IMG/VR virus record: IMGVR_UViG_2778261088_000008
DNA length: 15,399 nucleotides
Source: a virus
Lineage: Duplodnaviria; Heunggongvirae; Uroviricota; Caudoviricetes
Reading direction: 5' to 3' (one strand)
Shown: positions 10,090 through 11,700 of the stretch, one piece after another
Numbering within the stretch: position 1 is the stretch's first letter
Layout: every line of letters begins with the position of its first letter
Notes under the pieces: generated by a model
What the model saw: the letters and a program-made list of their open reading frames with translations, nothing else
Database searches by the model: none
Told to the model about the DNA's origin: nothing
Made by a program: the position numbers and the translations under genes

Positions 10090-11700
10090 TAGTCACTTTT
10101 GTGGGGACAGTCCACAAAACTGCCAACTTCCGCTTCTTGCTCTTAGCGGACATTAGCATAGGCTATTTACCATAACGCCTCATTACGCGCACCGCCCAGA
10201 CTGACTCAGCGCGTTTCTGGCATATCCCCGGTAAAACAAGTAACAAACCACCCGAAAATGAACACCAGAAACGCGACTTAAGAATCTACCCTATGAATGG
10301 ATATGCACTCAACCGAATCGATCTTGGTTTCAATCTTATTTATCGGGATCAGGCTTCTTTTTAGGTAACTTCGGGGGCTTAACTTGCTGATGACTTTGCG
10401 TTCGGCGCGTAAGCCAGGGATGGTCAGCTTTAGGTTTAACATAGTATTTTGAGCGTAAATCAATACGGGCATTATCCACTCGTTCATGGACACTCTTTTC
10501 ATCATCCAGTGGTATAGGCTCCGGGCCATCAACATACTTTTCCCAGCCCAGCGCTTTCCCGTCATACAGAACGTTAATTTCACCGTCAAAGTTCTCGCAT
10601 ACAGTAACAACCGAATGCCTAAGTCGATATCCCCGGCCCTCACTGCGTACCTGAAACGCACTGCTTTTGTACTGGAAAGTGAGATTTTTAGACAGAACGC
10701 GCTTCGCCTGTAGGCTGAAGATATAACCCAGTTCCTCTTCAGAATGGTGCACATCAAGATGAGCATTATCAGTAGTACGAGGCGACGTAGCGAACCGGTT
10801 GTTATAGGCTTCAATAAAGGTCGGCAACCATGCATTTGCTGTTTCAATATCACTGATATTCTGAAGCCGCATTTCTTTGACCAGCCTGTCCTGTAGTGTC
10901 TGATTGGCGCGCTCTACCCGCCCTTTTGCCTGCGGGCTGTTGGCATGGATTGGCTCGATGCCCAGTGTCTTTATCGCACGAGTGAACTGGGTCAGCTCAC
11001 CTTCCCGCTCTGGGTTATTTACCCTGAATATACTGTGTCTATCAGAGTAGAGAGCGAGCGGTACGCCATGATCATTAAGGTAACCCCGGAGGGTTTCCAT
11101 GTAAGCCCGGGTTGTTTCAGCAGGCACAAAACGCAACGCCATCAACGCACTGGTGGCATCATCAATGAAAACGATCAGTGTACATCTGGGGCCTCGATTT
11201 TCAAACCAGTCATGAGGTGAGCCATCAATCTGGATCAGTTCACCGTAAGATGGTCGTCGCATGCGGCGTTGATATATACGGGCAATTTTACGACGGCGTT
11301 CACGCCATAACCCCTCTTCTATCATCCACTTTCTGAGAGTTTCAACGGATAAAGATAAACCGTGTATCTCGCGCAATTTTTCGCACGCAAACGTAGGTCC
11401 AAAATCAGCGTAACGGCCTTTGAGGAGTGAAATTACTGTTGCTCTGAATTCAGTAGAAAAGGAATTATTAGGACGCTTTCCACGTCGGTGGGAAACCAGA
11501 CCAGAAGGCCCTTCATTTCTATACCGTTGCACCAGACGTTTAACCTGCCGAATAGAAATGCCAATGCGTGCCGCAGCTTGTTCCTGAATAATCTGAAGTC
11601 GGTGGAGTTCCTTATGACTCATCGTAACAGTCTCTTTGATCATGAAAAATCCCCCAGAGAATTGTCTGGGGACATTTTAGAATGGTTCAAAGGGGACATT
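10090..11700 (-). mobile_element. Insertion-sequence-like element carrying one DDE transposase; boundaries approximate and unresolved
   Basis: A single intact transposase gene with non-coding flanks, interrupting the prophage between flxA and the early-region genes. GGGGACA-containing motifs occur near both flanks (10094-10108, 11667-11679, 11687-11699) and a weaker candidate left end is at about 10212-10228, but no clean terminal inverted repeats or target-site duplication could be established by eye. Confidence 0.4.
10336..11643 (-). CDS. DDE transposase (N-terminal HTH plus integrase/rve catalytic core; IS481/ISNCY-like)
   Basis: 435 aa, ATG 11643 with SD GGGGGA upstream. N-terminal HTH-like region (GISIRQVKRLVQRY). 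Catalytic D-D-E candidates in FIDDATS, LYSDRHS and KGRVERANQTLQDRL. Basic C-terminal tail. No frameshift or internal stop. Confidence 0.85.
   Translation of the reverse strand: MIKETVTMSHKELHRLQIIQEQAAARIGISIRQVKRLVQRYRNEGPSGLVSHRRGKRPNNSFSTEFRATVISLLKGRYADFGPTFACEKLREIHGLSLSVETLRKWMIEEGLWRERRRKIARIYQRRMRRPSYGELIQIDGSPHDWFENRGPRCTLIVFIDDATSALMALRFVPAETTRAYMETLRGYLNDHGVPLALYSDRHSIFRVNNPEREGELTQFTRAIKTLGIEPIHANSPQAKGRVERANQTLQDRLVKEMRLQNISDIETANAWLPTFIEAYNNRFATSPRTTDNAHLDVHHSEEELGYIFSLQAKRVLSKNLTFQYKSSAFQVRSEGRGYRLRHSVVTVCENFDGEINVLYDGKALGWEKYVDGPEPIPLDDEKSVHERVDNARIDLRSKYYVKPKADHPWLTRRTQSHQQVKPPKLPKKKPDPDK

Follow-up and report, generated by a model that had tools for sequence, protein, structure and literature searches.

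The entire 15,399-nucleotide stretch from the Caudoviricetes record IMGVR_UViG_2778261088_000008 (hereafter the window) contains a 435-aa transposase open reading frame (ORF) that was originally predicted to belong to an element spanning positions 10090-11700, located between flxA and the early genes of a prophage. We are strongly inclined to conclude that this ORF encodes the transposase of an ISEsa1-like element of the IS1202 family of insertion sequences (ISs), and that the transposing unit is a 3,274-bp cargo transposon (a 'transporter IS') occupying positions 8444-11717 and inserted in a hokW/sokW-type locus. The unit is read on the minus strand in the order left inverted repeat (IRL), transposase gene (tnp), cer-like Xer site, flxA, ydfV, relB-relE, and right inverted repeat (IRR). 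The prediction of a DDE transposase in an inserted mobile element is borne out by a profile match, by recognizable catalytic residues, and by the existence of empty sites. Its boundaries are not, the true ends being at 8444 and 11717, and flxA, ydfV, relB, and relE lie inside the element as cargo rather than beside it.

Ends of the element and the target duplication

To map the ends, the window was compared with copies on plasmids and with 79 genome loci at which related transposases are encoded. At the left end 18 aligned genome loci diverge exactly at coordinate 11717, and a scan of metagenome and viral sequences yielded 52 further distinct IRL flanks; at the opposite end, similarity both to the plasmid copies and to empty sites breaks exactly at 8444, the IRR tip. 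In simple IS relatives of 1,364-1,449 bp, the longest of which occurs ten times in a single Hahella genome, the right end is homologous to this outer IRR and not to anything near 10129. The two ends form an imperfect inverted repeat with TGT at both tips (22 of 30 positions are identical between the IRR and the reverse complement of the IRL), in which TGTTAAC...TGTCCCC at the IRL corresponds to TGTCAAC...TGTCACC at the IRR with a conserved block at nucleotides 20-26. Both ends contain two TGTC(C/A)CC-type repeats, at about nucleotides 20-26 and 44-50. A perfect 15-bp duplication directly abuts both element tips, with its copies 3.3 kb apart (Table 1).

No terminal inverted repeats or target duplication had been found originally, and this stands for the edges of the 10090-11700 interval, which have neither; it does not stand for 8444 and 11717, and the ends were overlooked because one of them lies 1.6 kb outside that interval. 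GGGGACA motifs had also been noted on both flanks in direct orientation, and we confirm their positions and orientation (10103, 11668, and 11692, all on the plus strand). They do not exceed chance expectation (three against 1.1 expected, with 18 of 200 shuffled sequences reaching three) and we dismissed them as a boundary signal: the right-hand pair are the sub-terminal repeats of the IRL, whose inverted partners TGTCACC and TGTCATG are in the IRR, and the copy at 10103 is coincidental and lies in cargo. Comparison with strains lacking the insertion, proposed as a check at the outset, was carried out and provided the exact ends and the duplication.

The position 10129 deserves separate consideration, as similarity among more than ten variants stops there. 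The block conserved among variants thus ends at a point that would define a simple IS of ~1.6 kb (about 10129-11717) sitting beside native flxA and relBE genes, its target duplication either never made or since lost; this is the arrangement originally envisaged and that of an ISfinder-type definition, and it agrees with the publication of ISEsa1 as a 1,609-bp element without a duplication (PMC10132070). We nevertheless regard it as extremely unlikely. An end at 10129 was rejected as there is no inverted repeat, the only motif being TAATGTCC, which is in direct orientation relative to the IRL. A 14-mer flanking the IRL does not recur within ~4.4 kb downstream of the IRL in any of 16 contexts, and so is not found at a boundary ~1.6 kb away; for 16 genome loci the 3-kb flanks compared did not extend to the IRR. 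Moreover, it is all 3,274 bp and not 1.6 kb that is missing from the empty site, and in IncF and IncI plasmids the flxA-relBE segment has arrived together with the transposase gene, bounded by precise 15-bp duplications.

A more elaborate arrangement would have two levels, with an autonomous 1.6-kb core IS and longer units formed by use of a surrogate or solo distant IRR, as for ISEcp1, such that relBE-IRR is a captured remnant. The sharp boundary at 10129 would be accounted for, as would the high variability of the cargo between the core and relBE-IRR when both of these outer modules are conserved. It is the outer IRR, however, that is homologous to the IRR of the simple relatives, and there is no alternative IRR beside the core; no core-only transposition product was found in the 16 contexts examined with the 14-mer, and relBE is kept beside the IRR in all enterobacterial variants with an IRR of the window type. 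We therefore consider this two-level arrangement improbable, and favor the 3,274-bp unit. The segment at 10129-10147 (minus strand GCTAAGAGCAAGAAGCGGA) is more conserved than its surroundings and can form a small hairpin (CCGCT...AGCGG).

A divided hok/sok locus and insertions elsewhere

The element is inserted between the Shine-Dalgarno sequence and the ATG of hokD, in a hokW/sokW-type locus of a Qin-like lambdoid prophage, and it is this locus that is interrupted rather than, as first suggested, an early operon leading toward the nin/Q region. The sok, mok, and leader sequences are separated by the transposon from hokD, which lies directly behind relBE. The regulatory half matches the Rfam sok model RF01794 over its full length (104 bits with a gathering score of 59; E 1e-23), and the match ends at the transposon tip. 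The sok RNA and hok leader are thus upstream of a Hok-family ORF, and the two halves are contiguous in empty sites. An Rfam scan of 8000-12400 gave nothing beyond sok and a sub-threshold isrK-like match (8185-8266, minus strand; 25 bits with a gathering score of 50; E 0.018) that follows shortly after the hokD gene, around the 3' fold-back and terminator of the hok mRNA.

Empty sites were sought with the reconstructed pre-insertion sequence, consisting of the leader, one copy of the 15-mer, and hokD. About 2,500 E. coli genomes match this query without a break at 99% identity, and strain 2 HS-C contains the same Qin-like prophage lacking exactly 8444-11717 and with one copy of the 15-mer. In 78 lambdoid/Stx phages the two flanks are adjacent, with 96-99% identity across the reconstructed junction; the empty-site phages among the matches listed include 933W and VT2-Sakai, and have annotated mokW/hokW/sokW genes. 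The insertion is present in only one phage record. The alternative raised with the original prediction, that the ORF is a native prophage gene, is contradicted by these sites. In strain W5-6 there is an additional ~2.1-kb IS66-family (ISEc22-like) insertion at window position 12832-12840 (L001 13441-15527) that is absent from the window; the 9-bp alignment overlap at 12832-12840 is its target duplication.

In IncF hok, IncI pnd, and other hok loci, the same two ends bracket elements of 2.3-12.8 kb that differ in cargo and have 15-16-bp duplications of their own, and besides the 15-bp duplication in the window, 15-16-bp duplications are present in at least 20 further distinct insertions. Copies of 3,301 bp, the undeleted length corresponding to the 3,274 bp of the window, are found in an IncF hok locus (duplication GGAGAAGAAGGCCAT) and in an IncI pndA locus (duplication TGGAGGGGCTATGAT). 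These plasmid copies share the relE-relB-ydfV-flxA segment and the transposase gene with the window at 99.7% identity over 8426/8440 to 11719/11776. The reconstructed empty pnd site for the IncI insertion is identical at 520 of 520 positions in ColIb-P9 and other IncI plasmids, and 773 plasmid records match it at 99% or more. A 12,843-bp member at a hok ATG in a Phytobacter IncF plasmid (NZ_AP018757.1; L085 2016-14858) has the nickel genes ncrABCY and the chromate genes chrBA between the transposase gene and relBE, with the duplication GGAGAAGTCAGCTAT. Elements of 2,261-8,109 bp in metagenome and viral contigs have duplications of 15-16 bp, as do the Hahella copies, at nine unrelated sites. 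A 4,275-bp variant of 70% identity in Scandinavium hiltneri (L036 2927-7201) is at a non-hok site with the duplication CATTAAGCTGCAAAT; its transposase gene is seemingly disrupted (the longest ORF is 270-271 aa), and by eye its cargo includes genes for a GrpB-family protein and a hexapeptide acetyltransferase, with a GNAT/DUF1778 toxin-antitoxin pair beside the right end in place of relBE.

As the hok Shine-Dalgarno/ATG region is conserved between loci, a 3.3-kb block could in principle have spread from one hok locus to another by homologous recombination through the flanking hok sequences, with the 15-mer being simply conserved hok sequence. Hybrid flanks of the kind expected do exist, in L187 and in L248, the latter combining a pnd leader with hokD on the opposite side. 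Yet the 15-mer differs from locus to locus, is duplicated in each, and occurs only once in empty sites; the resemblance between loci falls off precisely at the TGT tips and not at variable points inside the flanks; and duplications of 15-16 bp likewise accompany the non-hok insertions in Scandinavium and Hahella. Homologous exchange is thus not the main route, given the duplications specific to each locus and the breaks at the TGT tips, and as an explanation for the distribution it is scarcely credible, although recombination between copies is likely as a secondary process. A related proposal, that the sequence upstream of hokD is a second and diverged hok leader and the 15-mer a conserved part of it, was ruled out by the empty sites and the per-locus duplications. 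Three full-length copies (L187, L248, and L219) have flanks from different hok loci, such as a pnd leader and hokD, or have only 6 bp in common, which suggests either recombination between copies or an adjacent deletion.

Insertion strongly favors the translation-initiation region of genes for hok-family toxins. Among the 52 distinct 40-nt IRL flanks from metagenome and viral contigs, 38 were classified manually as hok initiation regions with diverged upstream hairpins and leaders. The joint at hok targets is always ...GGCAA|GGAG...AT(G)|, and the target in the window reads ...GGCAA|GGAGAAGNAGGCNAT|G; at one genome locus (L019) the 15-mer is the same as in the window but in the opposite orientation. 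At non-hok targets a CAA ending 15-16 nt from the joint is found in 11 of 45 flanks as against 1-3 at other offsets, a modest excess. Right ends and left ends also occur in tandem, separated by a spacer of 15 bp at three loci (L104, L169, and L177), of 10 bp in L020 (2916-2927), and of 17 bp in a Hahella locus (L025 4377-4395), arrangements that fit either tandem elements or repeated insertion into a regenerated target. Both the CAA excess and the tandem arrangements fit a target motif that resembles the right tip of the element itself (...TTGACA), which we offer solely as a hypothesis.

Transposase, cargo modules, and the K-12 remnant

The 435-aa protein matches the NCBIfam model NF033594 (ISNCY family transposase) with 456 bits, well beyond the cut-off of 250, and Pfam identifies N-terminal helix-turn-helix (HTH) domains (HTH_28/29/32) together with a partial match to the rve_3 integrase core. 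An alignment with homologues down to 35% identity places the catalytic residues at D140, D201, and E245, in conserved IQIDGS, LYSDRHS, and GRVERAN blocks respectively. A search of solved structures gave a single match, weak and uninformative, to a retroviral-type integrase (E 0.0098). Near-identical plasmid DNA encodes a 446-aa protein annotated by PGAP as 'IS1202-like element ISEsa1 family transposase', to which the window protein is 98% identical.

The gene had been described as intact and full length, and it is an uninterrupted ORF; compared with the 446-aa protein, however, it lacks nine residues (SINRHITQE, between residues 21 and 22) and stops two codons early through a point change at 10338 (A instead of T). 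The loss corresponds to a 27-bp in-frame deletion between 11-bp repeats at ~11582-11592 and is positioned at the start of the HTH domain, the N-terminal DNA-binding domain. The missing segment is kept in all homologues compared, from Enterobacteriaceae to Chlamydiae and Patescibacteria, and its absence from the window protein appears to be a derived state. Activity of the element, which was initially entertained, is thus doubtful for this copy: because the transposase lacks nine conserved residues in its N-terminal HTH domain, the copy is probably non-autonomous and immobile unless complemented in trans. Its ends and target duplication are intact, and mobilization in trans may be possible. Between the IRL and the transposase ATG is a terminator-like hairpin that overlaps the inner sub-terminal repeat of the IRL and could shield the gene from read-through from the hok promoter; a promoter and terminator scan of the region gave site counts not above those in shuffled sequences.

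The variants share two conserved modules. One comprises the transposase gene and ~200 bp 3' of its stop codon, which are conserved beside the IRL. The other, relBE with ~100-150 bp upstream of relB, adjoins the IRR in seven of seven enterobacterial variants, complete or incomplete, that have an IRR of the window type. The window relB and relE genes form one operon and have 99.95% DNA identity to those of E. coli K-12 (b1564 and b1563). The cargo between these modules is exchangeable, and elsewhere includes a CDF transporter and a cytochrome b561-like gene, a P-loop kinase, a MocR regulator with an alkylsulfatase, or ncrABCY/chrBA.

Whether passenger sequence follows the transposase stop had been left open, and most of the ~200 bp at that position is a predicted cer-like Xer site arranged in the manner of cer-type multimer-resolution sites. 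The match to the degenerate Xer pattern consists of an 11-bp XerC arm, a 7-bp spacer, and an 11-bp XerD arm (Table 1), a pattern that has no match in 200 shuffled sequences; the XerD arm is TTATGGTAAAT, which we take to be that of cer. The site is conserved among variants, and those of 70% identity have the cer XerC arm GGTGCGTACAA and an 8-bp spacer. With the 212 bp at 10129-10340 as query, matches at 60-80% identity were obtained in the unannotated intergenic sequence of about 2,500 plasmids, of which those sampled are mostly small (3-14 kb). On one side the alignments stop at the XerD arm or no more than a few bases from it, and on the other, that of XerC, they continue for 80-150 bp; it is on the XerC side that cer-type sites have about 180 bp of accessory sequences that bind ArgR and PepA. 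The cer-like site and relBE together look like plasmid-stability cargo.

Table 1. Features of the transposon and of its target locus in the window.
Feature	Position	Strand	Description
hokD coding sequence, toxin half of target	8275-8430	minus	ORF, 51 aa; annotated hokD in identical DNA of strain W5-6 and in K-12
Target-site duplication, hokD-side copy	8429-8443	minus	15-mer GGAGAAGCAGGCTAT on minus strand; Shine-Dalgarno through 'AT' of the hokD ATG
IRR	8444-8495	minus	Plus strand TGTCAACGCAAAGCAGAAGTGTCACC...; sub-terminal repeats TGTCACC 8463-8469 and TGTCATG 8487-8493
relE	8502-8789	minus	ORF and annotation
relB	8789-9028	minus	ORF and annotation; relBE is a type II toxin-antitoxin pair, conserved IRR-proximal module
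ydfV	9053-9358	plus	Variable cargo of the window variant
flxA	9561-9893	plus	Variable cargo of the window variant
Cargo spacer	9894-10128		Outside the block conserved among variants
Hairpin TTTTGTGG-GGACAGT-CCACAAAA	10096-10118		In cargo spacer after flxA; perfect 8-bp stem; contains the left-hand GGGGACA
Boundary of conserved tnp/cer core and variable cargo	10129-10135	minus	...GCTAAGAGCAAGAAGCGGA on minus strand, then boundary; not a transposition end
cer/dif-like XerC-XerD core	10165-10193	minus	GGTGCGCGTAA-TGAGGCG-TTATGGTAAAT; exact match to degenerate Xer pattern
cer-type accessory-sequence-like region	10194-10313	minus	XerC side of core; 60-80% identity to plasmid intergenic DNA
Transposase gene (tnp)	10336-11643	minus	Uninterrupted ORF, 435 aa; IS1202 family, ISEsa1-like, DDE
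Terminator-like hairpin	11651-11672	minus	TCCCCAGACAATTCTCTGGGGG, then T run; between IRL and transposase ATG; consensus match only
IRL	11667-11717	minus	Minus strand TGTTAACACCAAGCTGTAATGTCCCC...; sub-terminal repeats TGTCCCC 11692-11698 and 11668-11674
sok antisense RNA gene/hok mRNA leader, regulatory half of target	11717-11888	minus	mok start, hok promoter region; Rfam RF01794
Target-site duplication, leader-side copy	11718-11732	minus	Perfect match to 8429-8443

The relB-relE-hokD order created by the insertion in the window is also that of E. coli K-12. The K-12 MG1655 sequence can be aligned with window positions 4656-10514 and resumes its match at 14088, such that 10515-14087 (3.6 kb) is missing, including most of the transposase gene, the IRL, sok, and several prophage genes. 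The junction (L086 5850-5859) has an overlap of ~10 bp, suggesting a deletion via microhomology, and K-12 ydfW is the 3' remnant of the transposase gene. HokD of the window is identical to that of K-12 (also known as RelF), in which the sok half of the locus is deleted altogether; in contrast, the hokW/sokW loci of Stx and lambdoid phages such as 933W and Sp5 (PMC8621323), to which the window target is orthologous, have no transposon dividing the two halves.

Relationship to known elements and implications

The IS1202 family was formerly a group within ISNCY. Its transposases are DDE enzymes with an RNase-H fold, modelled on Tn7 TnsB (Harmer & Hall 2023, PMC10132070), and family members have imperfect terminal inverted repeats of ~23-29 bp that begin with 5'-TGT (Siguier et al. 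2022, 10.1101/2022.12.17.520857). A single transposase of ~400-500 aa, with an N-terminal HTH and a DDE catalytic domain, is typical of the family, and the window element likewise has a single transposase gene with HTH domains and a DDE profile, as well as imperfect TGT-tipped repeats with a block near nucleotide 20. ISEsa1 was published as a 1,609-bp element with 15/22 inverted repeats and a 439-aa transposase, and without a target duplication 'when multiple examples were examined', for which it was assigned to its own IS1202 subgroup (PMC10132070). The window transposase is of the same type and the conserved core is close to 1,609 bp (~1,616 bp without the deletion), but in the window the functional ends are separated by 3,274 bp (3,301 bp in copies without the deletion), with 22/30 repeats, a 15-bp duplication, and cargo genes between them, and the core has neither an inverted repeat nor a duplication of its own. 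The published lack of a duplication is explained by the right end lying farther out, as the same ends bracket elements of 2.3-12.8 kb; the outer IRR reads …TGCGTTGACA. The difficulty first met in locating ends in the window thus has its parallel in the published record. The link to ISEsa1 is an indirect one, through the PGAP 'ISEsa1 family' label on 98%-identical proteins. Under the ISfinder rule, two copies are the same IS at 95% or more amino-acid identity or 90% or more DNA identity to the reference.

Comparisons with other subgroups are instructive. Members of the ISTde1 subgroup have 15-17-bp duplications, TGT tips, and a second conserved block near position 20 (10.1101/2022.12.17.520857), all of which are seen in the window element, and its simple relatives are 1.3-1.5 kb; in the tree of Harmer & Hall, the ISEsa1 transposase nonetheless falls outside this subgroup on a separate branch (PMC10132070), and neither target specificity nor multi-gene cargo is reported for the subgroup. 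The ISAjo2/ISAba32 subgroup targets XerC/D dif and pdif sites, inserting 5 bp from the Xer site with 5-bp duplications (PMC10132070). It thus shares sequence-specific targets and an association with Xer sites with the window element, but the latter carries its cer-like site internally, targets a hok initiation region, and has a 15-bp duplication. The transporter ISs ISKpn21, ISKpn65, and ISRel10 of this family have passenger DNA between the transposase gene and one end (PMC10132070; 10.1101/2022.12.17.520857), which consists of a single hypothetical ORF in elements of about 2-2.5 kb in total, whereas the ISEsa1-like elements have 1.7-11 kb of modular cargo including metal-resistance operons.

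Outside the family, Tn3-family transposons that carry toxin-antitoxin modules have reportedly been described by Lima-Mendez et al. in 2020. These too have a type II toxin-antitoxin pair built in as a conserved component beside recombination functions, but their transposases belong to an unrelated family and act by an unrelated mechanism, their duplications are of 5 bp, and they are not known to target hok. The internal site resembles ColE1 cer in having a XerC arm, a spacer, and a XerD arm, and in its similarity to plasmid intergenic DNA on the XerC side, and differs in its 7-bp spacer and its location inside a transposon; it is recognized here from its sequence. In the literature searched there is no description of hok targeting, of relBE as cargo of an IS1202-family element, or of a split hokD locus, such that a cargo-carrying IS1202-family element is of a known kind, and it is the relBE-carrying, hok-targeting variant that was not found there.

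Several considerations weigh against our interpretation. All of the evidence is comparative, and the transposase in the window is mutated, so that this copy may never move again. The core/cargo boundary at 10129 is sharp and is conserved even between 70%-identical variants, and the ISfinder ISEsa1 (as reported in PMC10132070, the comparison being with this published description) corresponds to the core at 10129-11717 with its 1,609 bp, 15/22 repeats, and no duplication. A few copies in metagenome and viral contigs, namely L187, L219, and L248, do not have matching duplications, which may be due to recombination between copies or to deletions. The signal GGCAA-N15 is weak at non-hok targets, being represented by the 11 of 45 flanks mentioned above, and the hok bias could be inflated by the sampling of related plasmids and prophages. 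Taking these into account, we think it likely that ISEsa1-type elements are generally not small ISs without duplications but plasmid and prophage transposons with the organization IRL-tnp-cer-like site-[exchangeable cargo]-relBE-IRR, which home to the ribosome binding site and start codon of hok-family genes, possibly through an IS-end-like GGCAA 15 bp from the joint.

By analogy with the family, the transposase would bind the sub-terminal repeats at both ends and cleave at the TGT/ACA tips, which would then be joined to target strands staggered by 15-16 bp, with repair of the stagger giving rise to the duplication. Such an insertion would have cut the sok/mok/leader half away from hokD and set hokD directly behind relBE, and hokD would now be read from the relBE side without control by Sok or Mok. 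The relBE genes and the cer-like site may act as stability cargo.

With the correct right end, the anomaly of the published ISEsa1 is resolved, as these elements have 15-16-bp duplications like their relatives, and the IS1202 family acquires a second target specificity, that for hok translation-initiation regions, in addition to the dif/pdif Xer sites. If this interpretation is correct, the relBE genes of K-12 are, together with flxA and ydfV, passengers of a transposon, and the relB-relE-hokD order is the scar of an insertion in a prophage hokW/sokW locus; hokD (relF) would have lost its sok and mok regulators through the landing of a transposon between them and the hokD ATG, and one addiction system would be carried by a transposon that disables a second. 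Among the cargo that this backbone transfers between IncF plasmids, IncI plasmids, and prophages are nickel and chromate resistance genes, and a unit that matters for the dissemination of resistance and plasmid-stability genes is missed when annotation pipelines report a lone 'ISNCY transposase'. It is now possible to test by what means a DDE transposase selects a 15-bp target next to a hairpin, and also whether the loss of Sok control or the gain of relBE alters the maintenance of plasmids and prophages.

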